A stretch of DNA of 14,075 nucleotides from a bacterium. Its GTDB lineage: Bacteria > Thermosulfidibacterota > Thermosulfidibacteria > Thermosulfidibacterales > Thermosulfidibacteraceae. The translations under genes and the position numbers were made by a program. The notes under the pieces are model-generated. The model saw only the letters and a list, made by a program, of their open reading frames with translations, searched no databases and had not been told where the DNA came from. The stretch spans positions 1-14,075 of the forward strand of contig JALVZS010000027.1 of NCBI GenBank assembly GCA_027022065.1. Direction: 5' to 3'. Shown here piece after piece: positions 870 through 13,143 of the stretch (its first letter is position 1; each line of letters begins with the position of its first letter).

Positions 870-2072
870 ATGAAAAGGCCTCTTGGGGTGCTGTTGTTTT
901 TATTTTTGCTGGTTCAGGGTGTTTGGGCTCGCCAGATTAAGGTTTTTATAAACAGAGGGGAAACCTTTATAGATTCCTTGGTAGCCCATGATATCAGCAG
1001 GAAAGAGGCGGCGATGGTAGCTTACGCCTTGAAGAGGTATGTGAACCTTAACAGGCTACCTGAGGGCTTTAGCTACTACATAGACTACCAGGGAAACATT
1101 CCTGTTCAGCTGGTTATCCCTTACGATGTGGGTAAGGTCTACGATGTTGACTTAAGGAGAATAGATGTAAATCCCAAAAAACTAAAGGTAAGGATTCAGG
1201 AGAAGAGCTTTTACGGCGTTTTGGGACAGGGGGATTCCGTTTTTTACTCTATATACGACCAAACAGGGGATCCCAATTTGGCCTACCAGTTCGTCAGCAT
1301 ATTTAAGTACCGTATAGACTTTCACACATGGACAAGGCCTGGGGATTACTATGCCTTTATTTGTCAGTACCTTACAGATGATTTTGGAAATGCAAAATAC
1401 GGAAGGATCCTTGTTGCCAAGTATGTGGGGAAAAAGGTGAAGGCGGATGCAGTTTACTACAAAGGGGCATACTACGACAGCAAAGGCTACCCTCTTAAGG
1501 GCGTGTTTCTGGCATCTCCTGTAGATTCTGGTTGGTTAAGGGCACCTTTGAGGTACAAGAGAATATCCAGTAGATTTACCTACCACAGGCTCCATCCCAT
1601 ACTGGGCATAGTGAGGCCTCATCTGGGTGTGGACTATGCCGCTCCCATGGGAACCCCCATAAAGGCCGTGGCGGATGGCGTGGTTATATGGAAGGGATGG
1701 CTTGGAGGATACGGAAGAACTGTGAAGATAAGACATAGAGGAGGGATAATAACCCAGTACGCTCACATGAGTAGGTATGCAAAAGGGCTGCATGTAGGAC
1801 AGAGGGTTAAAGAGGGACAGGTTATAGGGTATGTGGGCATGTCTGGCCTTGCCACAGGGCCCCATCTTGATTTCAGGATAAAAGTGCACGGCCGCTTTGT
1901 TAATCCTTTGAAGTTCTTGGCTAGGCACGCACATTACAGACTCATAAGGGTGGCTAGAAAGAGGCTAAGGGGAAGGGCATTGGCCTATGTAAGATCTCAG
2001 CTTAGTAAGCTTGATGTTATGCTGGCAAGTGCCAAGACCCTTTCCAGCGGGACTCTAAAGGCTTCTGACTAA
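870..2072 (+). CDS. Secreted M23 family (LytM-type) metallopeptidase with an N-terminal uncharacterised domain
   Basis: N-terminal signal peptide [21 protein letters not shown]-terminal M23 motifs are present: [13 protein letters not shown] (HxxxD), YAHMS, and [15 protein letters not shown]. The last is the usual GPHLHF motif, but the second His is Asp. A GGAGG RBS lies upstream. Confidence 0.85.
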
Positions 2073-2153
2073 TTGCCTATTTTTATAACATTTATTGCTT
2101 ATATAAATGTGCCTTATTTGCACTAATCTTTTTCTTGTTCTATGTAATTTCCT

Positions 2154-2393
2154 ATGAAGTTTTATTTCATCTTCCGTCGCACTGTTGATGTTATGATGGC
2201 CGATGAATTGCTTTCAAAAAATAATGTTTCCTATAAAATAGTGCCTGTTCCTAAGGAGATATCTAGTGAATGTGGGCTTTGTGTGCTTACAGAGGAGCCT
2301 TGGGAAAAGGTGCTTTTCTTGTTAAAAGAAGTAAAACCCATCGCCGTTTATAATGGGGGAAAGGGGCTTGTCTGGAAAGGTGATATATCTTGA
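2154..2393 (+). CDS. DUF3343-like small Cys-containing protein (putative Se/S carrier-like), first gene of the selenium module
   Basis: 79 aa. The N-terminus [45 protein letters not shown] matches my recollection of the DUF3343 pattern (beta-strand, helix, then iPvPxeISsxCGlal). Its 3' end overlaps the start of the downstream desulfurase-family gene. Confidence 0.6.
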
Positions 2394-3531
2394 TAACGCC
2401 GCCACATCATTTCCAAAGCCCAAAGAGGTTTGGGATGCGGTTTTGAACTATGCCTGTAGCATAGGTGCCAATCCTGGAAGATCAGGTCACAGGTTGTCCG
2501 TTGAGGCTGCGCGCTTGGTATTCAACTGCAGGAGGGCACTTGCGGAGCTTTTGGGTGTTTCGGCCTGCGACAGGATCATATTCACCAAAAACGCTACTGA
2601 GGCGGCCAATGTGGTTATAAGGGGGCTTTTGGAAGGCGTTGGTGGCGGTAATGTGGTGGCCACATGCCTTGAGCACAATGCCGTTGCAAGGCCACTTAAG
2701 TACTGGTGCAGAAGGGAAGATATTGAGCTGAGGGTTGTTTCCTGCTCACCAAGTGGGGAGGTGAATCCGAAAAAGGTGCTGGAGGCTGTTGATGAAAGCA
2801 CCATCGCTGTTTTTGTGAATCATGCAAGCAACGTTTTCGGCACCGTTACACCCTTTGAGGATATAGCGGCCTTTGTGAGCGTTCCCGTGGTTGTGGATGC
2901 CACCCAGACATTGGGCAGCTATCCTTTCAGCGTGGGGGATTTTAGCAATGTGATTGTTGTTTTCACAGGGCACAAGGGGCTTTTGGGGCCTCAGGGTACA
3001 GGGGGCTTTTACATACCTGAGGGGATAGAGCTTGATCCGCTCATTCGTGGAGGAACAGGAAGCAACTCCGAGAGTGATGAGCAGCCTTCCTTTTTACCCG
3101 ATAGGTTTGAAAGTGGAACATTAAACGTTCATGGAATTGCAGGGCTTCTTGCCGGGATAAGGTGGATTAAAAGCAGGGGTATTGAGAATATAAGAAAGCA
3201 CGAGCTAGAGCTTGCCTGCCTCTTTGTTGAGGCTGTTTCTTCTGTGAAGGGCGTTGATGTATACGCTTCTGGTGACTGGAGCAGGCGCATAGGTGTGGTT
3301 TCTTTAAATGTGAGGGGCAGGGATCCCGGTGTTGTTTCCCACATACTTGACAGCGAGTACGGGATAGCCACAAGGGCGGGTCTTCACTGTGCTCCCTGGG
3401 CACACAGGGCTTTGGGAACATATCCTGTGGGGACAGTTAGATTCTCTTTCGGTCCCTTTAACACGGAAAGCGATGTTGAGGAGGCAGTAAGGGCAGTTAA
3501 AAATATAGGGGAGGGGGCAAATGGTTGTTGA
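2353..3531 (+). CDS. Cysteine desulfurase family protein (class V aminotransferase fold, SufS/CsdA-like; selenocysteine-lyase candidate)
   Basis: The PLP-lysine motif [15 protein letters not shown] and the active-site Cys motif [13 protein letters not shown] are both present. The N-terminus has [14 protein letters not shown]. The true start may be GTG 2380, preceded by GGAAAGG, rather than ATG 2353; both overlap the DUF3343 gene end. Confidence 0.85.
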
Positions 3532-4105
3532 TGCAAGAGGGCTTCCATGTCCAAAGCCTGTTCTCATGACCAAGGATGCGCTGGAGAAGGTAAGCGAGGG
3601 AGTGGTGGAAGTTTTGGTGGATAATGAGGCCTCAAAGGAAAATGTGAAAAGGTTTGCGGAAAAGCAGGGTTGCTGCGTTGAAATAGTGGAGGAGGATGGA
3701 TACTACAAGTTGAGGATTGCAAAGGGCTATGTTTGCTCCCGTGAGGCTCCGGAGGAGAAGCAGGTTGAGGGAAAGAATAAGGTTGTGCTTATCCTATCAG
3801 ACTCCATGGGCGAGGAGAGGAAGCTTGGTGAGCTTCTCATGAGGGCATTTTTGAGCACTCTCAAAGAGGCCACCAACAGGCCTAAAAGACTCATATTTGT
3901 TAACAGGGGCGTCTTTCTCACCACCGAGGGCTCAAAGGTTATAGATGTGCTTAAAGAGCTGGAGGATATGGGCGTAGAGATATACTCCTGTGGCACCTGC
4001 CTTGATTACTTCGGACTGAAGGATAAGCTTCTGGTGGGGAAGATCACCAATATGTACGATACCGTGGAGGAGCTTTTAAACGCCGATTCGGTGGTGAGAG
4101 TATGA
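3521..4105 (+). CDS. yedF: YedF-type selenium-metabolism protein: N-terminal TusA/SirA-like domain (CPxP) fused to a C-terminal DsrE/DsrF-like domain
   Basis: The N-terminus [18 protein letters not shown] is the TusA CPxP motif. The C-terminal half ([12 protein letters not shown]...[13 protein letters not shown]...) has DsrE-like fold signatures. It overlaps the upstream gene by 11 nt, and its stop TGA 4103-4105 overlaps the selD ATG 4102 (ATGA). Confidence 0.75.
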
Positions 4106-5103
4106 AGGAGCCTAGGCTTACTGAGATGGTTAGGGCCTCCGGCTGAGGGGCCAAGGTGGGGCCGGCGGAGCTGGCCCGAATACTTGAAGGACTTGAAGTT
4201 GAAGCAGGCGAGGAGGTTATAGCAGGTTTTGGAGGATTTGAGGATGCTGCTGTTGTTAAGGTGGACGATTCCCTTGCCCTTATAGCCACGGTGGACTTCA
4301 TAACTCCTGTGGTGGACGATCCTTTCATCTTTGGGCAGATAGCTGCGGCAAATGCCTTAAGCGATGTTTATGCCATGGGAGGACAGCCTTGGTTTGCCCT
4401 GAATGTTCTCTGCTTTCCCTCGTGCATACCGGAGGGTTGGGTGAGGGATATTGTAAAGGGAGGGCTCTCAAAGATAAGAGAGGCAGGAGCATTCCTGCTT
4501 GGAGGGCACACAGTTGATGATACAGAGCCCAAGTACGGGCTTTGTGTTGTAGGAAGGGTTCATCCGGAAAGGGTAATAACAAATTCATCAGCAGTTCCCA
4601 GGTGTAAAGTATTCCTCACTAAGCCCATTGGTTTGGGGGTTGTTGTAACGGCCATCAAGGCACAGATGGCATCCTCCGATGTCGTTAAAAGGACGGTTGA
4701 TGTGATGACCACCTTAAACAAAGATGCGTCTATGAAGATGGTTGAAGCTGGTGCAGTTGCAGCCACCGACATCACAGGGTTTGGTCTTCTAGGCCACGCC
4801 CTTGAGATGGCAAGATCCTCTGGAGTGGATATTGTTATAGAGGCTAAAAAGGTTCCCGTTATAGAGGAGGCCTTTGAGTATGCCTCTATGGGCCTTATAC
4901 CTGCGGGAGCTTATAGTAACAGGGATTTCTGTTCAGGGGATGTGGTGTTTGAAAGGGATGTGGGGGATCTTGAAATTCTCATGTTTGATCCTCAAACCTC
5001 TGGTGGCCTGCTTGTGGCCGTTCCCTATGAGAAGGCCCATCTTTATCCCTACTGGGAGATAGGCTATACTGTTGAGGGAAAGGGAAAGGTGAGGGTGGTG
5101 TGA
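4102..5103 (+). CDS. selD: Selenophosphate synthetase SelD (selenide, water dikinase), selenocysteine-containing form with an in-frame UGA at 4144-4146
   Basis: The ORF track starts at GTG 4156. The same frame is open upstream from ATG 4102 through a single TGA at 4144-4146, giving [31 protein letters not shown]. This is the conserved SelD N-terminal SG(C/U)GxK motif with the Lys intact. The rest ([12 protein letters not shown]...[11 protein letters not shown]...[16 protein letters not shown]) is typical AIR-synthase-fold SelD. The ATG sits in an ATGA overlap with the yedF stop. Confidence 0.85.
4157..4179 (+). promoter_or_regulatory. Candidate bacterial SECIS hairpin immediately downstream of the selD UGA
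   Basis: A GC-rich stem-loop begins about 13 nt after the UGA. GGGCC at 4159-4163 pairs with GGCCC at 4173-4177, with the 9-nt loop GGCGGAGCU between them and a possible U-A extension. The spacing from the UGA fits bacterial SECIS geometry. Only the exact stem was checked by eye, not the full fold. Confidence 0.4.
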
Positions 5104-5633
5104 TGAGGGCGCTTTACATGGGGAGGTTTCAGCCCTTTCATCTCGGGCATCTTGAGGTGGTGAGAAGCATCCTTGAGGACAACGACGAGCTTATCATTGC
5201 CATAGGCTCTGCCAACTTTAACTACAATGTGAAGAGTCCCTTCACCGCAGGAGAAAGAATGTGGATGATCCATGAGGCCTTGGTTGAGGCGGGCCTTGAC
5301 ATGAGGAGGATTTACATAGCCACATATCCCAACATAGAGAACAACGCTGCCTGGTATGCGCATATAAGCTCCCTGCTTCCTCCGTTTGAGAGGGCCTATA
5401 CGGGCAATCCTCTCACGCAGATACTTCTTAAAGAAGCCGGAATAGAGGTGGTTCCTCTAAGGATGATAAAGAGGGAGCTTTACTGTGCCACCACCGTAAG
5501 GGAGAGGATGCTCAGGGGAGAGCCCTGGCAGGAGCTTGTCCCTCCTGCGGTGGCTAGAATCATAGAAAAAATCAAAGGGGTGGAGAGGCTGAGGTATCTG
5601 GCAAGAAGCGAATCGGATCCCCTTTCCTACTAG
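5100..5633 (+). CDS. nadM: Nicotinamide-nucleotide adenylyltransferase, archaeal NadM type
   Basis: [14 protein letters not shown] is the (H/T)xGH nucleotidyltransferase motif. The protein is co-linear with Methanocaldococcus-type NMNAT over its full length (IIAIGSA...SPFTAGER...GVERLR). The likely start is ATG 5103, overlapping the selD stop TGA 5101-5103; the GTG at 5100 is the alternative. Confidence 0.85.
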
Positions 5634-5643
5634 GAGGCTTGCC

Positions 5644-6852
5644 TTGAAGGTATCCCTTCTCTTTGTTGGTGATGAGGTTGTGGATGGTATTATACCGAAC
5701 ACCAATGCAGAGTATATCAAAAGAGAGCTTCAGAACTGGGGTATTGCTGTTGCGGAAACTGCTGAGGTCAGAGATGATCTTGAAATGATAGCACACACCT
5801 TGGACTTTCTCTTTCTGTTCTCTAATTGCGTGATTGTCTGTGGAGGGTTGGGTCCTACGGAGGATGATGTTACAAGGGAAGCGGTGGCAAAGGCCCTTGG
5901 AGTACGCCTCGTTTTTAATGAGGATCTTTGGAGTCTGATAAAATCAAGGATAGAGTCTAGGGGAAGAGGTATTAGAAAGGAGCATGAGAAGATGGCCTTT
6001 GTCTATGAAGAGGGAGGCTACATAGAGAATCCTGTGGGTTTGGCTCCTGCCCTTTGGGTAAGAAAGGGCGAAAGGCTTGTGCTTCTTCTTCCTGGAGTTC
6101 CTGAGGAGCTTAGGCAGCTTCTTCCTCTGGCTGTTAAGAGCCTGTTTAAGGCGCGGGGAGATGGCATGGAGTTTAGGATATTTAAAACCGTGGGACTTAG
6201 GGAATCCGATGTGAACTCCGCCGCAAGAGAGGTCCTTTCTGGTCTTGATGTGAGATGGGGTACTGTCATAAGGGATGGAGAGGTTTGGCTCAATGTAGAG
6301 GCGGGAAGTGGTATTATGGAGATGGTTGAGAAAAGGCTTAGGGAGGCTTTGGGGGAAAATCTTTATGGGTGCGATGAGGAAACTTTGGAAGCGTTAGTGG
6401 GAAAGATGCTAAGAGAAAAAGGACTTACTCTATCCACGGCAGAGTCCTGCACCGGCGGGCTTCTGGCCAATCTTATAACCAACATTTCTGGTTCCTCTGA
6501 CTACTTCAAAGGAGGGGTTGTTTCTTACCTTGAGGAGGTTAAGGTAAAGCTTCTAGGCGTTTCCTGGGAGAGCGTAAAAGAACACACCGTTTATAGCCAC
6601 GAGGTTGCAAAAGAAATGGCATTGGGGGTTAAACGCTTAACAGGCTCGGATGTCTCCCTTTCCACCACGGGAATAGCAGGTCCCACGGGGGAACTGCCTG
6701 GGAAGCCCGTGGGTATAGTTTATGTGGGTTTGGCGCACGATTCTGAGGTTGAGAGTTTTGAGTTTCGGTTCAATTATGATAGAAAAGGAAACAAAATGGC
6801 CTTTGCCAAGGCTGCCTTAGATGTGCTTAGGAGGTATCTGCTAAGGCTATGA
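5644..6852 (+). CDS. cinA: CinA family protein: N-terminal MoCF-biosynthesis-like (ADP-ribose pyrophosphatase) domain plus C-terminal PncC-type NMN deamidase domain
   Basis: TTG start at 5644, with an AGGAGG RBS 7 nt upstream at 5631-5636. The N-terminus is [15 protein letters not shown]. The C-terminal domain has [17 protein letters not shown]...LSTTGIAGP. Its stop overlaps the thpR ATG (ATGA at 6849-6852). Confidence 0.85.
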
Positions 6853-7412
6853 GGCTGTTTGTGGCTGTTGATGTGCCAGATGAGATAAAGGAAAAGCTTT
6901 ACAGGGATGCTATGCTCTTAAAGGGAAGCGGCATAAGGGCTTCTTATCCTGCGCGTTCCTCGTATCATATCACCCTTAAGTTTCTTGGTGAAGTTGCCGA
7001 AGAAAGGGTAAAAGAAATTATAGATGCGCTTACAGGGGCCTTTGATCACATAGCTCCCTTTGAGGCAAGTGTTGAGGGAAGAGGGGTTTTCCCAGGCTTT
7101 AGGAATCCCAGGGTGGTGTGGGGAGGGGTTAGAGATAACGGGGGTTTTTCGGCTCTAAAAGAGGCCGTAGATAGAGCGCTTGAAGTTTTAGGCTTTGAGA
7201 GGGACGATAAGCCCTTTGTTCCCCACATTACCTTGGGTAGAGTAAAAAAGGCCAGTATGGAAGATAAAAGAATAATTAGGCAGTTTTGTGAGGGAAAGGT
7301 TAGTTATGGGAGCCTCACCGTTGGCGAGGTGATCCTTTATAGGAGTATATTAAAACCCGAGGGGGCTGAGTATAAGAAGATACATATTTTTAAGATCGGG
7401 GGAGTTGCATGA
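6849..7412 (+). CDS. thpR: RNA 2',3'-cyclic phosphodiesterase / 2'-5' RNA ligase (ThpR/LigT, 2H phosphoesterase)
   Basis: Two HxT/S motifs, HITLKFLG and HITLGRV, with the expected spacing. Length 187 aa. ATGA overlaps at both ends. Confidence 0.8.
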
Positions 7413-7591
7413 GGGAAGATTTGGAGAAGGAACTTTCCATGGTGGATGAGGAGCTTGAGTATCTGTTTAAGAGGTTTGAAGAGCTTATAGAGAGAAGGAG
7501 AAGCTTGGTGGAGAAAATGAGATCCGGCAAAGAGAAGCATAGAGAGAGGGAGACCTATATAAGGCATGTAAAGCATAGAAAAGTTGAGTGA
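7409..7591 (+). CDS. Small highly charged predicted coiled-coil protein (60 aa), function unknown
   Basis: The ATG at 7409 overlaps the thpR stop (ATGA), and its stop TGA 7589-7591 overlaps the dgt start. Sequence: [60 protein letters not shown]. The exact 4-nt coupling on both sides argues it is translated. No family recognised. Confidence 0.4.
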
Positions 7592-8625
7592 TGACCATAA
7601 GGGGGCAATGGGAGAGGTGGGAGAAGGAACATTTACATCCCCTTGCGGCGAAAAGTGCAGAATCCAGAGGAAGGCAAAGGCCTGAGGATGAGTGCGATAT
7701 AAGAATCGCCTACCAGAGGGACAGGGACAAAATAATCCACTCTAAGTCTTTTAGGAGGCTAAAGCACAAAACGCAGGTCTTTCTAGCTCCTGTTGGAGAT
7801 CATTACAGGACAAGGCTTACCCATACCCTTGAGGTTGCCCAGATTGCCCGAACCATATCAAGGGCCTTAAGGCTTAATGAGGATCTAACAGAGGCCATTG
7901 CCATGGGGCACGATTTGGGTCACACTCCCTTTGGCCATGCGGGGGAGGAGGTGCTGAATAGGCTCTGCCCTGAGGGGTTTCATCACGCAAGACAGAGCCT
8001 CAGGGTGGTGGATGTGCTGGAAAGGGAAGGGATGGGGCTTAATCTCACCTATGAGGTGAGGGATGGAATACTTAAGCACTCTAAAGGCTTAGGGGAGATA
8101 CTTGCGGAGGGCGAAGAGAGGCCTGTGACCCTTGAGGGGGAGGTGGTGAGGATAGCGGATGTGATTGCCTATGTTAATCACGATATAGACGATGCTCTAA
8201 GGGCTGGTCTTATAAAGGAGAGTGATCTTCCCAAGGAGTGTGTAAGGTTTTTTGGGGAAACCCATGGAAAGCGCATAGATACCATGGTTAGAGATGTCAT
8301 CAGTGAAACAAGAAGGATTGACTATGAAAGGGTTACGATGTCAGAAGAGGGATTAGAGTTTCTCTACGAGCTGAGAGATTTTCTATACAAGAGGGTTTAC
8401 AGTTCCTCTGTGGTTAGGAAGGAGTTTGAGAAGGCCTTAAAGATACTGGAAGAGCTGTATCACTACTTCTACGAGCATCCTGAGAAGATAAGTTCTGGGT
8501 GGGGAAGACCGAATGATCCTGTGGAGGTTAGAGTGGCCGATTACCTTTCTGGCATGACCGACAGATTTGCCATAGAGCTTTACAAATCTCTGTTTTTACC
8601 AAAACCTTGGAGGGATGCGGGATGA
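7588..8625 (+). CDS. dGTP triphosphohydrolase-like HD-domain phosphohydrolase
   Basis: dGTPase-family signatures are present: [23 protein letters not shown], the HD motif [12 protein letters not shown]...[14 protein letters not shown], and a C-terminal DYLSGMTD. The start is either GTG 7588 or ATG 7591. The stop TGA 8623-8625 overlaps the hemL ATG. Confidence 0.8.
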
Positions 8626-9899
8626 TGAAAAGCAAAGAGCTTTTTGCAAAGGCAAAAAGGCTTCTCCCTGGTGGTGTTAATAGCCCTGTGAGGGCCTTTG
8701 GCTCCGTTGGGGGCGAGCCTTTCTTCGTTAGGGAGGGCAGGGGTTCCAAGATATACGATGTGGATGGAAACGAGTACATAGACTATGTGTGTTCTTGGGG
8801 GCCCCTTATTCTGGGGCATGCACACCCTGAGGTTGTGGATTTTGTTAGGGATGTGGTGGCAAAGGGCACATCTTTCGGAATACCAATAGAGCTTGAGGTG
8901 TCCATGGCAGAGGCTGTGGTGGAAGCTGTTCCCTCCATTGAGAAGGTGCGTTTCGTGAACTCAGGAACGGAAGCCACCATGAGCGCCATAAGACTTGCCA
9001 GGGGATATACCAAGAGGAATAAGGTGGTTAAGTTTGAGGGGTGCTACCACGGACATGTGGATTATCTCTTGGTTAAAGCGGGCTCTGGTGTGCTCACCTT
9101 TGGCATCCCTGGAACCCCTGGTGTGCCAGAGGACTTTGCAAAGCACACACTCATTGCCAGGTTTAACGATCTGGAAAGCGTTGAATCTCTGTTTGAAAAG
9201 TACGGGGAAGATATAGCCTGTGTGATTGTTGAGCCTGTTATGGGAAACGCTGGGGTTATACTGCCGGAAAAAGGATTTCTGGAGGGGCTGAGAAGGATCA
9301 CAGAAAAATATGGAGCCCTTCTGATATTTGATGAGGTCATAACGGGGTTTAGAGTTTCCCTTGGAGGGGCGCAGGAGCGCTTTGGTATAAAGCCTGATTT
9401 GACCTGCCTTGGAAAGATAATAGGTGGAGGCTTTCCCGTTGGTGCATACGGCGGAAGGACGGACATAATGGCACATGTGGCTCCAGAGGGACCTGTGTAT
9501 CAGGCGGGAACCCTATCGGGCAACCCTGTAGCCATGGCAGCTGGCCTGAAGACCTTGGAGATACTGAAGAGGGAGAATGTGTATCCCGTGCTTGAGAAGA
9601 GGATGGAGAGATTTGGTAGGGAGGCAAAGGCCATATTTGATGAAGCGGGGATTCCCGTTACCGTAAACAGTATAGCGTCAATGGGTTGTATCTTCTTCAC
9701 AGAGGGTCCTGTTAAGAGCTTTGATGATGCTGCAAAGAGCGATACAAAGATGTACGCCAGATTCTTCTGGGCTATGCTGAAGAGGGGCATTTATTTTGCT
9801 CCCAGCCAGTTTGAGGCGGCCTTTATCTCATGGGCCCATACGGATGATGACATAGATAGGACGCTGGAGGCCATGAGAGAGGCTGTAAAGGAGATTTGA
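8622..9899 (+). CDS. hemL: Glutamate-1-semialdehyde 2,1-aminomutase
   Basis: N-terminus [26 protein letters not shown]. Class-III aminotransferase body. The PLP-Lys region is [16 protein letters not shown] 8622/8625 is preferred over the upstream TTG 8607 given in the track. Confidence 0.9.
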
Positions 9900-10753: not shown

Positions 10754-11022
10754 ATGGAAATGAGATTGGATAAAGAAACAAGCAGGATTTTAAAAGATTT
10801 AGTGAGACTGAGCGCTGTGGGAATGGAGCTTGCCGTATCCATTGTTATAGGTTTAGGCATAGGCCTGTTCATTGATAAGAAGCTTCATTCCTCGCCCTGG
10901 GGGATGCTGGCTTTTTTATCCTCGGAATTGTAGCAGGGTTTAGGGTGGTATTTAAAGAGGTGAAAAGAGGAATAAAGAGAGAGGATGGTGGCGGAAGAGC
11001 TGATAAAACGGATGATCAATAA
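10754..11022 (+). pseudogene. atpZ: AtpZ/Atp1-like small membrane protein (ATPase_gene1 family), disrupted by a -1 frameshift in a T6 homopolymer at 10912-10917
   Basis: From ATG 10754, [54 protein letters not shown] runs into TAG at 10931. Adding one T to the run restores ...[32 protein letters not shown]...Q*, ending at 11022. That is the canonical atpZ pattern (charged N-terminus, TM1, DKxLxTSPW, TM2, basic tail). Confidence 0.55.
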
Positions 11023-11338
11023 AGGCGCTTTTCTGGTTTTTGCCTTCGCCTTTGTGGGGGCTTCCTTTGGGAGGTCTGATGTTTTTTTGGGGCTTACAGT
11101 GGGAAGCCTCATGGCTTATCTGGACTTTTTAGTTATATGCTTTCTCAGCAAAGACATACTTGAGCTTCGCTCAAGAGGGGTATTCTTTGGAATTCAGATG
11201 TTTAAGTATCTGGTGATGGCGATTGTGCTTGGGGTCCTTTTCTTTTACAAGGTTATAAATCCACTTGCCACCGTTATAGGGTTGAGCTTGATTACCATAA
11301 TCCCGTTTGTGGAGTTTTCAAACCTGAAGAACATATAG
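10985..11338 (+). CDS. atpI: ATP synthase protein I-like (AtpI) polytopic membrane protein
   Basis: 117 aa with four hydrophobic segments, in the canonical position between atpZ and atpB. The alternative start ATG 11012 (MINKGAF...) would give only an 11-nt overlap with the restored atpZ frame. Confidence 0.55.
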
Positions 11339-11348
11339 GGAGGGCGGT

Positions 11349-12011
11349 ATGTACGAGCCTTTTGTGTTAAATCCTCTTCCCCATAAGTTTTTCCATGTGG
11401 TGCTTTCTATATATGTTTCCTTAATTCTAATCATTCTGGCGTATCTTGGGACCAGGAAGCTTTCTTTGGTGCCTTCAGGGCTTCAGAACTTCTGGGAAAT
11501 ATATGTTGAGGGCATGTATAAGTTCATGGACGATATTATCCCTGGGGATGTGAGGCCCCATGTACCGCTTATAGCAACCCTATTTATCTACATCCTCTTC
11601 TGCAACTGGATGGGAAATGTTCCGGGCTTCATCTCTCCCACGAGCAACTGGAACACCACCATAGCTCCGGCCATTGTGGTTTTCTTCTACTACCACTACT
11701 GGGGAATAAAGAAGCACGGACTTATCAAGTATCTTAGGCACCTTGGAGGGCCTGTGTGGTGGATGGCTCCCATGATGTTTGTTCTGGAAACTATAGGTCA
11801 CTTTGCCAGGGTACTTTCACTTTCCGTTCGTCTTTTTGGGAATATTATGGGAGAGGAAACTCTTGCTATTATTATGTTTTCTTTGGTACCTTTGCTAATT
11901 CCTGTTCCTCTTATGTTTTTATCTATATTTTTTGGTTTTATTCAGGCTCTTGTATTTACACTGCTTTCGGTTGTTTATATAGCTTTAGCTGTTGAAGAGG
12001 TGGAGCACTAA
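11349..12011 (+). CDS. atpB: F0F1 ATP synthase subunit a
   Basis: A GGGAGGG RBS lies upstream. The conserved stator Arg is in [15 protein letters not shown]. The protein is polytopic and 220 aa. Confidence 0.85.
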
Positions 12012-12034: not shown

Positions 12035-12400
12035 ATGCTGAAGAGAGTGGTTAGGACAGGACTTATGACACTGGGAGTCGCTTTATTTGCCGTGCCCGCT
12101 TTTGCTGCTGGTGATGCAGAGTTGAAGATAGCGGCTCTCAACATGCTTAAGTATGCTGCCATTGCAGTGGGATGGGGTCTTGGAATCGCTGCTGGTCTAT
12201 GTGGCCTTGGTCAGGGATTAAGTGTTAAGGGTGCTATGGAAGGAATTGCCAGGAACCCTGAGGCTTCTGGTAAAATCCAGGTGTCCATGATTATTGGTCT
12301 TGCCATGATTGAGGCATTGACCATTTACATGTTAGTTGTTGCTTTGATCGTGCTGTTTGCCGATCCTTTCAAAGCGGTTGCTTTGGTTGCTGGGCACTAA
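12035..12400 (+). CDS. atpE: F0F1 ATP synthase subunit c with an N-terminal signal-peptide-like extension
   Basis: AAAGGAGGG RBS. The C-terminal about 80 aa is a canonical c-subunit hairpin with the proton-binding Glu in [11 protein letters not shown]. The N-terminal about 25 aa extension ([26 protein letters not shown]) resembles a cleavable signal peptide. Confidence 0.85.
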
Positions 12401-12501: not shown

Positions 12502-13143
12502 ATGAGAAAGTTTAAGGTGCCGGAGGTTACCATTTTCAGACTCTCCCTTTATCTTAGGTGTCTTTCTGAGCTTGAAGAAGAGGGGGTTGAGGTTATATCT
12601 TCTGCGGAGCTTGGACAGCGGTGTGGGATAAACCCTGCTCAGATAAGGAAAGATCTTGCCTATTTTGGAGAGTTTGGCACAAGGGGTGTGGGTTACTATG
12701 TAAAGGATCTTAAGGAGGACATAAAGCGCATAATGGGCCTTGACAAGGAGTGGGAAGTGGCCCTTGTAGGTGTGGGGAACCTTGGAAGGGCCCTTCTTTC
12801 CTATCAAGGGTTCAAAAGGCACGGGTTCAAGATAAGCGTTGCCTTTGACAAGGTGGTGGACGAGGAAAGGCTCTCTGCTATGCCGGAGGGGTGCACCCTC
12901 TATCATGCGGATAAAATGGTGGAGGTTATAAGGGAGAGGAAGATAAAGCTTGCCATAATAGCGGTGCACTTTTCCGAAGCCCAGAAGGTTGCCGATGTGC
13001 TTGTGGAGGCGGGGATAAAGGGAATCCTCAACTTTGCTCCGGTCAGGCTCAACGTTCCCAAGGATGTGGTGGTTAGGCACATAGACCTGGGAGTGGAGCT
13101 AGAGATGCTTACCTTCTTCCTCTCTGCCCGTATTGGTAAGTGA
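12502..13143 (+). CDS. rex: Redox-sensing transcriptional repressor Rex
   Basis: The N-terminal winged helix ([16 protein letters not shown]...[28 protein letters not shown]) and the Rossmann NADH-binding motif [14 protein letters not shown] are both present. Length 213 aa. Confidence 0.85.

Follow-up and report, generated by a model that had tools for sequence, protein, structure and literature searches.

A 2026 review still asks how cells supply selenophosphate synthetase (SelD) with selenium while avoiding toxic free selenide and any mix-up with sulfur (PMC13188914). The question is raised here by four adjacent genes on a 14,075-nucleotide (nt) contig (JALVZS010000027.1, assembly GCA_027022065.1; hereafter the window) from the metagenome-assembled genome (MAG) of a Thermosulfidibacter-like thermophile. 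Four open reading frames (ORFs) lie back to back on the + strand, without a gap, from 2154 to 5103, and encode in turn a small DUF3343 protein, a pyridoxal 5'-phosphate (PLP) enzyme of the selenocysteine-lyase type, YedF (a TusA-like domain fused to a DsrE-like domain) and SelD. We read this cluster as a dedicated selenium-trafficking module that supplies SelD, to which we give a probability of roughly 0.6. That the four genes belong to one selenium pathway, as the initial annotation of the window had proposed, is well supported by the comparative evidence, namely family scores, invariant residues and recurrent linkage in other genomes. A relay that would start at the lyase and end, by way of the carriers, at SelD is our best hypothesis, and in this particular order of transfer we have considerably less confidence.

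The four consecutive, overlapping genes are present as first annotated, and each of the four family assignments passes its curated cut-off (PF11823, TIGR01977, TIGR03527 and TIGR00476), with every catalytic or carrier residue intact when the four protein sequences are read. The PLP enzyme (2353-3531, + strand, 392 amino acids (aa); PF00266) belongs to group II, the SufS/CsdA-like enzymes, and scores 429 bits against TIGR01977, for which the curated cut-off is 377. The housekeeping models fail (SufS 241 bits against a cut-off of 475, NifS 128 against 531, IscS 101 against 643), placing the enzyme outside the IscS/NifS/SufS housekeeping families, and the CsdA model gives 126 bits. The intact HK and HCAP active site ascribed to it can be read directly as H207K208 and H345C346AP: the PLP-binding lysine is K208 (GH207K208), the catalytic cysteine is C346 within RAGLH345C346AP, a group II RxGxHCA site, and the acid-base histidine is H108 (EHN). 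The motifs EHN[AS]V, GHK and RxGLHC[AS]P are kept in 24-26 YedF-linked homologues of the enzyme. Against NF040779, the model specific to the selenocysteine lyase SclA, the enzyme scores 311 bits, under the cut-off of 525, and it should accordingly be named not SclA but only a relative within the broader family. Its start codon is uncertain, the candidates being ATG 2353, TTG 2368 and GTG 2380, none of which is preceded by a well-spaced Shine-Dalgarno sequence.

YedF (3521-4105, + strand, 194 aa) matches TIGR03527 at 238 bits (cut-off 110) over residues 3-193 of 194. Both parts of the proposed TusA-DsrE fusion are recovered, as Pfam domains (TusA 82 bits, DsrE 33 bits) and as folds. An AlphaFold2 model (pLDDT 90.5) has two domains and a disordered linker at residues 72-82; by Foldseek the N-terminal domain resembles SirA-like 3hz7, TusA of the IscS-TusA complex (3lvj_C) and YeeD of the YeeE-YeeD thiosulfate importer (8k1r/8j4c), and the C-terminal domain resembles DsrE/DsrEFH (2hy5), YchN (1jx7) and TusBCD (2d1p). 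The TusA-like domain carries the motif C10PKP13 and the DsrE-like half C157GTC160, with C10, P11, P13, C157, G158 and C160 invariant across 16 YedF sequences. The likeness to TusA and DsrE proper is confined to the level of domain and fold: the TusA equivalog NF001423 gives 21 bits where 78 are required, and none of the DsrE/TusD equivalog models attains its cut-off for the window YedF.

The first and smallest product of the cluster (2154-2393, + strand, 79 aa) is a member of Pfam PF11823, Se_S_carrier, formerly DUF3343, at 50.3 bits (gathering cut-off 25, E=1.6e-13). A search with the single sequence returned 2 proteins and one with an alignment drawn from neighbouring loci returned 381; a sequence search of the PDB gave zero matches even at E≤1. 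P31, P33, C40 and G41 are invariant in 152 of 152 DUF3343 sequences, and all four residues are present in the window protein. The cysteine pair noted in the initial annotation exists in this protein (CGLC, C40 and Cys43) but is not a feature of the family, since the second cysteine occurs in just 6 of the 152 members. For the design of mutants, then, Cys40 alone is a family-wide feature. Position 11, at the start of helix 1, is a valine in the window protein and a histidine in 144 of the 152 members; His11 is thus not absolute across the family, and for this reason Val11 does not unseat PF11823 membership. Cys43 is carried by 3 of the 8 members that lack His11, as against 3 of the 144 that have it, although the window protein and one other sequence (P0122) are 81% identical, so that few independent events stand behind this association. 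The DUF3343 protein of the window lineage is, in short, atypical, without His11 and with an extra, lineage-specific Cys43.

SelD is mechanically listed as an ORF at 4156-5103 with a GTG start (315 aa). The same frame extends upstream, however, through an in-frame TGA (4144-4146) and 13 codons to an ATG at 4102, giving a predicted product of 333 aa (4102-5103, + strand) in which the UGA would be read as selenocysteine (Sec) at residue 15. With the TGA entered as cysteine this product scores 358 bits against TIGR00476 (cut-off 125) and holds both AIRS domains (PF00586 97 bits, PF02769 54 bits). The restored N-terminal loop reads ASG-U15-GAK18; the corresponding residues of the Escherichia coli SelD loop are C17 and K20. 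Among the matches listed in our survey of YedF loci (described below), the aligned column of 22 YedF-adjacent selD genes is TGA in 20 and TGT, encoding cysteine, in 2. We considered that the UGA might mark a pseudogene or that SelD might start at GTG 4156, and rejected both, as conservation in 20 orthologues extends over the TGA column and the 17 residues before it. To judge by this alignment the selenocysteine codon is real and the 333-aa product the true one, and Sec-SelD is the norm in these lineages. The closest solved structure is that of the Sec-type SelD of Aquifex aeolicus (2yye/2zod, E=1e-66, 308 residues aligned).

A conserved hairpin of the selenocysteine insertion sequence (SECIS) type follows the codon. 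The predicted hairpin, GGGCCGGC-GGA-GCUGGCCC (4159-4177, + strand), begins 12 nt 3' of the UGA and has an 8-bp stem (4159-4166 with 4170-4177) closed by the loop GGA. A permissive Rfam scan of the whole window yielded neither a SECIS nor any other RNA family, its only match being a chance-level small RNA at 622-795, and because no model was available from this source the hairpin was tested through covariation. In an ungapped alignment of 21 selD regions 83% of cells are paired, and four of the pairs show two-sided changes (16 double-sided changes in all), for example GGG...CCC to CCU...AGG. None of 500 shuffles attains the covariation score, and every measure drops when the 3' arm is slid. The region also codes for protein, so its conservation is partly protein-level; the compensatory changes argue for RNA structure all the same. 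With a conserved TGA column and a SECIS-type hairpin downstream, the initial annotation was right to restore the N-terminus of a Sec-containing SelD. Public gene calls begin SelD after the UGA (312-315 aa) on two sister contigs (L081, 1267-2214; L082, 1606-2553) and on a contig of the Thermosulfidibacter takaii type, a systematic mis-annotation of Sec-SelD that drops the Sec-containing N-terminal loop.

The cluster was first described as translationally coupled throughout and as hard-wired to a Sec-containing SelD. The overlaps are real: 41, 26 or 14 nt between the DUF3343 and lyase genes, depending on whether the latter starts at 2353, 2368 or 2380, 11 nt between lyase and yedF, and 4 nt (ATGA) between yedF and selD. 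They are not specific to selenium genes. The + strand array runs from 2154 to ~9899 over about ten genes, unrelated functions among them, and most of its junctions overlap. The gene for a nicotinamide mononucleotide (NMN) adenylyltransferase begins on the stop codon of selD, at 5100 or 5103 (junction 5100-5103), and 4-nt overlaps follow on the same strand between CinA and ThpR (6849-6852), between ThpR and a 60-aa ORF (7409-7412) and between that ORF and an HD-hydrolase (7588-7591). Since the overlaps continue into unrelated downstream genes, they reflect the general style of a compact genome, which is no surprise in a thermophile whose genome is small, and we rejected overlap as a sign of selenium-specific coupling. 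What the overlaps support is co-expression of the four selenium genes, not selenium-specific wiring, and the notion of hard-wiring to Sec-SelD is not supported, given both this continuation and the default status of Sec-SelD in related loci.

The limits of transcription are less sharply drawn. An AT-rich intergenic spacer of 81 nt (2073-2153, + strand) lies 5' of the cluster, downstream of an M23 peptidase gene on the same strand, and is the biggest gap on the + strand between 870 and 9899, the two remaining gaps being 10 and 12 nt; it is likely the promoter region, although a sigma-70 consensus scan found no + strand promoter in 2073-2153. Promoter and terminator counts over 1900-9000 are at shuffle expectation, with no terminator 3' of selD and no terminator-like sites above chance across the array 2154-9899, and the operon boundaries are accordingly inferred.

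This same continuity of overlaps invites a deflationary explanation, in which the first three genes form an ordinary sulfur relay, for a thio-cofactor or tRNA thiolation, that stands next to selD through tight gene packing alone. The overlaps do reach genes of NAD salvage and RNA repair, and proteins of the DUF3343 and TusA/DsrE kinds carry sulfur in general and are also encoded where selD is absent (PMC5322559). The failure of the housekeeping desulfurase models already speaks against such a relay, as does the specific membership of the window protein in TIGR03527, a family statistically tied to SelD (PMC5322559). The behaviour of the cluster in other genomes bears on it too.

We surveyed 80 YedF loci taken from a collection of species-representative genomes, a sample rather than a census that leaves aside T. 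takaii and the source genome; neighbours were detected by tblastn, and DUF3343 by a hidden Markov model built from the neighbours. All counts are among the matches listed. The four genes stand together at 9 of the 80 loci, and three gene orders occur among them. The order of the window, DUF3343-lyase-YedF-SelD, is found at three loci of Aquificota MAGs (L002-L004), YedF-lyase-DUF3343-SelD at five loci of Desulfobacterota MAGs (L010, L017, L021, L026, L036) and TusA-lyase-DUF3343-SelD-YedF in a Dehalococcoidales MAG (L020). YedF is flanked by 3 kb or more on each side at 46 loci; of these, 22 have DUF3343 no further than 5 kb from YedF, 13 have SelD there, 11 have the lyase and 12 have none of the three. 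By our arithmetic chance would place a single-copy gene there in ~0.3% of cases for a genome of ~3 Mb. The nearest named YedF belongs to T. takaii ABI70S6 (77% identity), the closest relative in culture, and a contig that carries it has the domain order Se_S_carrier, Aminotran_5, TusA/DsrE, AIRS/AIRS_C; identical YedF proteins are encoded on two contigs, from metagenomes or MAGs, whose downstream genes match. The linkage anticipated by the initial annotation is therefore found elsewhere, at the nine loci and on the T. takaii-type contig. Its recurrence in three orders and in distant lineages, far above chance, speaks against an ordinary sulfur relay brought beside selD by packing, an explanation we regard as very improbable.

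Two further observations on these loci deserve mention. In one of the Aquificota MAGs with the gene order of the window (L002, 6582-7289), ~700 nt separate YedF from SelD, as against the 4-nt overlap in the window. Dehalococcoidales loci have, besides a full-length YedF, an extra stand-alone TusA-only gene, either upstream of lyase and DUF3343 (L008, 4239-4451; L020, 3512-3685) or upstream of DUF3343 alone (L022, 1809-2018; L033, 2530-2736), from which it follows that the TusA and DsrE functions can be split or duplicated.

The commonest pair among the matches listed is YedF-DUF3343, and loci of the Clostridioides type have lyase...YedF-DUF3343 with selD elsewhere. Such a distribution, with the lyase at only 11 of the 46 loci, would suit a scheme coupled to uptake, in which a YedE-type importer encoded elsewhere in the genome hands selenium to YedF and DUF3343 and thence to SelD, leaving the PLP enzyme a side branch for the recycling of selenocysteine, by comparison with YeeE-YeeD thiosulfate uptake. 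The match of the YedF N-terminal domain to YeeD of the YeeE-YeeD complex fits this scheme, as do the YedE/YedF-SelD association and the FdhT/FdhU data from Campylobacter jejuni cited by Lin et al. (PMC5322559). The window contains no YedE gene, however; the lyase always sits between DUF3343 and YedF in the closest relatives; and deletion of yedE in Methanococcus maripaludis was without a clear selenium phenotype (PMC11097638). On balance we think a scheme coupled to uptake unlikely, if worth keeping in view.

Under the reading we prefer, a selenium-trafficking module with the lyase at its head, four steps can be envisaged. The PLP enzyme would take selenium from L-selenocysteine, derived from selenoprotein turnover or from adventitious synthesis, holding it as a selenosulfide or perselenide on Cys346 and releasing alanine. 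The TusA-like domain of YedF would then dock on the PLP enzyme, much as TusA does on IscS, and accept the selenium on Cys10. From there the selenium may go to the CGTC pair in the tethered DsrE-like domain, to Cys40 of DUF3343, or to both, either to be handed on or to be stored, and DUF3343 would be a small carrier that diffuses freely or acts as a buffer. Finally the selenium would be delivered to the flexible N-terminal loop of SelD with its Sec15 and Lys18, and selenophosphate made from ATP. Through such a chain, reactive selenide would stay bound to protein and apart from the far more abundant sulfur, which would be its purpose.

Several points weigh against this reading. An adjacent lyase or selD is missing at most of the YedF loci among the matches listed, and the gene overlaps are shared with the NAD-salvage and RNA-repair genes. 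A source of free selenocysteine is not obvious in a vent chemolithoautotroph. The PLP enzyme scores below the cut-off of the model built for SclA (311 bits, against 525), and SclA itself binds cysteine tighter than selenocysteine (bioRxiv 10.1101/2020.02.07.939272). Selenium may not be the only cargo of the carriers, since DUF3343 and some YedF genes are also found where selD is absent (PMC5322559), and the 2026 review still regards the source of selenium for SelD in vivo as unsettled (PMC13188914).

Some of these same observations would be accommodated if sulfur did the capturing. Here the PLP enzyme would work as a cysteine desulfurase that loads persulfide on YedF or DUF3343; reaction with selenite or selenide would trap inorganic selenium as S-Se adducts, and a CxxC pair, the CGTC of YedF or, in this lineage, the unusual CGLC of a DUF3343 without His11, would resolve these to a perselenide, the true substrate of SelD. 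The conserved core would then be the YedF-DUF3343 pair and not the lyase, and the module a general device for the persulfide-driven capture and resolution of selenium. All components have sulfur-relay folds, SclA binds cysteine tightly, the CxxC of YedF is invariant and the window DUF3343 has an extra one, and an autotroph would presumably have no obvious supply of free selenocysteine. Yet the characterised family member is reportedly weak on cysteine with a strong bias to selenocysteine, and the second DUF3343 cysteine is rare in its family. We consider both the capture chemistry and this general role of the module quite improbable.

None of the pieces is new as a marker of selenium neighbourhoods. 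Haft & Self (2008) defined TIGR03527 and cited the Enterococcus faecalis genes EF_2566 (YedF), EF_2567 (SelD) and EF_2568 (TIGR01977, 'probably a selenocysteine lyase') (PMC2276186). Lin et al. (2015) described YedF (CPxP, CGxC) and DUF3343 in gene clusters that also hold the Sec lyase family and SelD, proposed that DUF3343, with its one highly conserved cysteine, is a Se/S chaperone, and found YedF and SelD to co-occur genome-wide (P=2.2e-16) (PMC5322559). Kayrouz et al. (2022) counted genes overlapping selD, with yedF and duf3343 among the top ones (bioRxiv 10.1101/2022.04.13.486033). The product of EF_2568, SclA, prefers selenocysteine and has low activity on cysteine (bioRxiv 10.1101/2020.02.07.939272; PMC13188914). 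Reviews of 2022 and 2026 still describe the roles of these proteins as predicted. The relay hypothesis first put forward for the window is the published one, and the locus is a further instance of an already known neighbourhood, with no new component or arrangement.

Its closest counterparts differ in instructive ways. In E. faecalis the same three families are adjacent and the PLP enzyme is likewise a TIGR01977 member with the group II RxGxHCA site, but SelD stands in the middle rather than last, no DUF3343 appears in the table of Haft & Self (2008), SclA has H99-H100 where the window enzyme has EHN, and the cluster serves a selenium-dependent molybdenum hydroxylase trait in an 'orphan SelD' genome. 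The gut actinobacterium Slackia heliotrinireducens has DUF3343, Sec lyase family and YedF (Shel_25430-25450) in the order of the window, with the same proposed roles, DUF3343 as Se/S chaperone and YedF as a selenium redox or carrier protein (PMC5322559); there SelD lies several genes off and does not overlap YedF. The cluster of T. takaii ABI70S6 has the identical gene order, though its sequence has diverged; its YedF is annotated 'selenium metabolism protein YedF' and a gap stands before its called SelD, consistent with an N-terminus that contains Sec.

Further afield, the IscS-TusA-TusBCD/DsrEFH relay, which serves tRNA 2-thiolation in E. coli and the Dsr system in Allochromatium, also combines a PLP desulfurase, a TusA-fold CPxP acceptor and a DsrE-fold acceptor. 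In the window, by contrast, a single chain unites the TusA and DsrE parts, a CGxC pair lies in the DsrE-like domain, the desulfurase is of group II and not IscS, the end user is SelD, and the element is presumed to be selenium rather than sulfur. Lacourciere and Stadtman are said to have found that NifS-like proteins replace free selenide for SelD in vitro. In this NifS/CsdB-type delivery a PLP lyase likewise gives SelD protein-bound selenium, the proposed acceptor being the N-terminal Sec/Cys-Lys loop of SelD; those experiments reportedly used housekeeping desulfurases without carrier proteins.

Outside the cluster the window holds several features of separate interest. The selD stop codon is also the beginning of an NAD-salvage pair (5100-6852), an archaeal-type NMN adenylyltransferase (NF002243, TIGR01527) followed by CinA/PncC, related to NMN deamidase, and the arrangement is shared by the sister contigs L081 and L082. 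The 60-aa ORF (7409-7591), which overlaps both neighbours by 4 nt, encodes a highly charged product with no Pfam match. The ATP synthase c subunit (12035-12400, 121 aa) is matched by PF00137 over residues 43-105 only, ahead of which is a hydrophobic, signal-like extension of ~40 aa; AtpZ-like, AtpI-like and subunit a genes (10754-12011) precede it and a Rex-type repressor (12502-13143) comes after. A partial ORF on the - strand (1-763), cut by the left end of the window, is divergent from the M23 peptidase gene and has a helical-repeat-like look. Scans for tRNA genes and for tandem repeats were both empty.

As a locus for reconstitution or structural work the cluster is convenient, yet no more testable than the known examples: its four proteins, compactly encoded and co-expressed, come from the relative of a thermophile and are probably stable, and both carriers have confident models. 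Should the persulfide-driven capture that we hold to be a long shot turn out to be true, it would define a new chemistry for making selenophosphate from inorganic selenium, one that needs neither free selenide nor glutathione nor selenocysteine.

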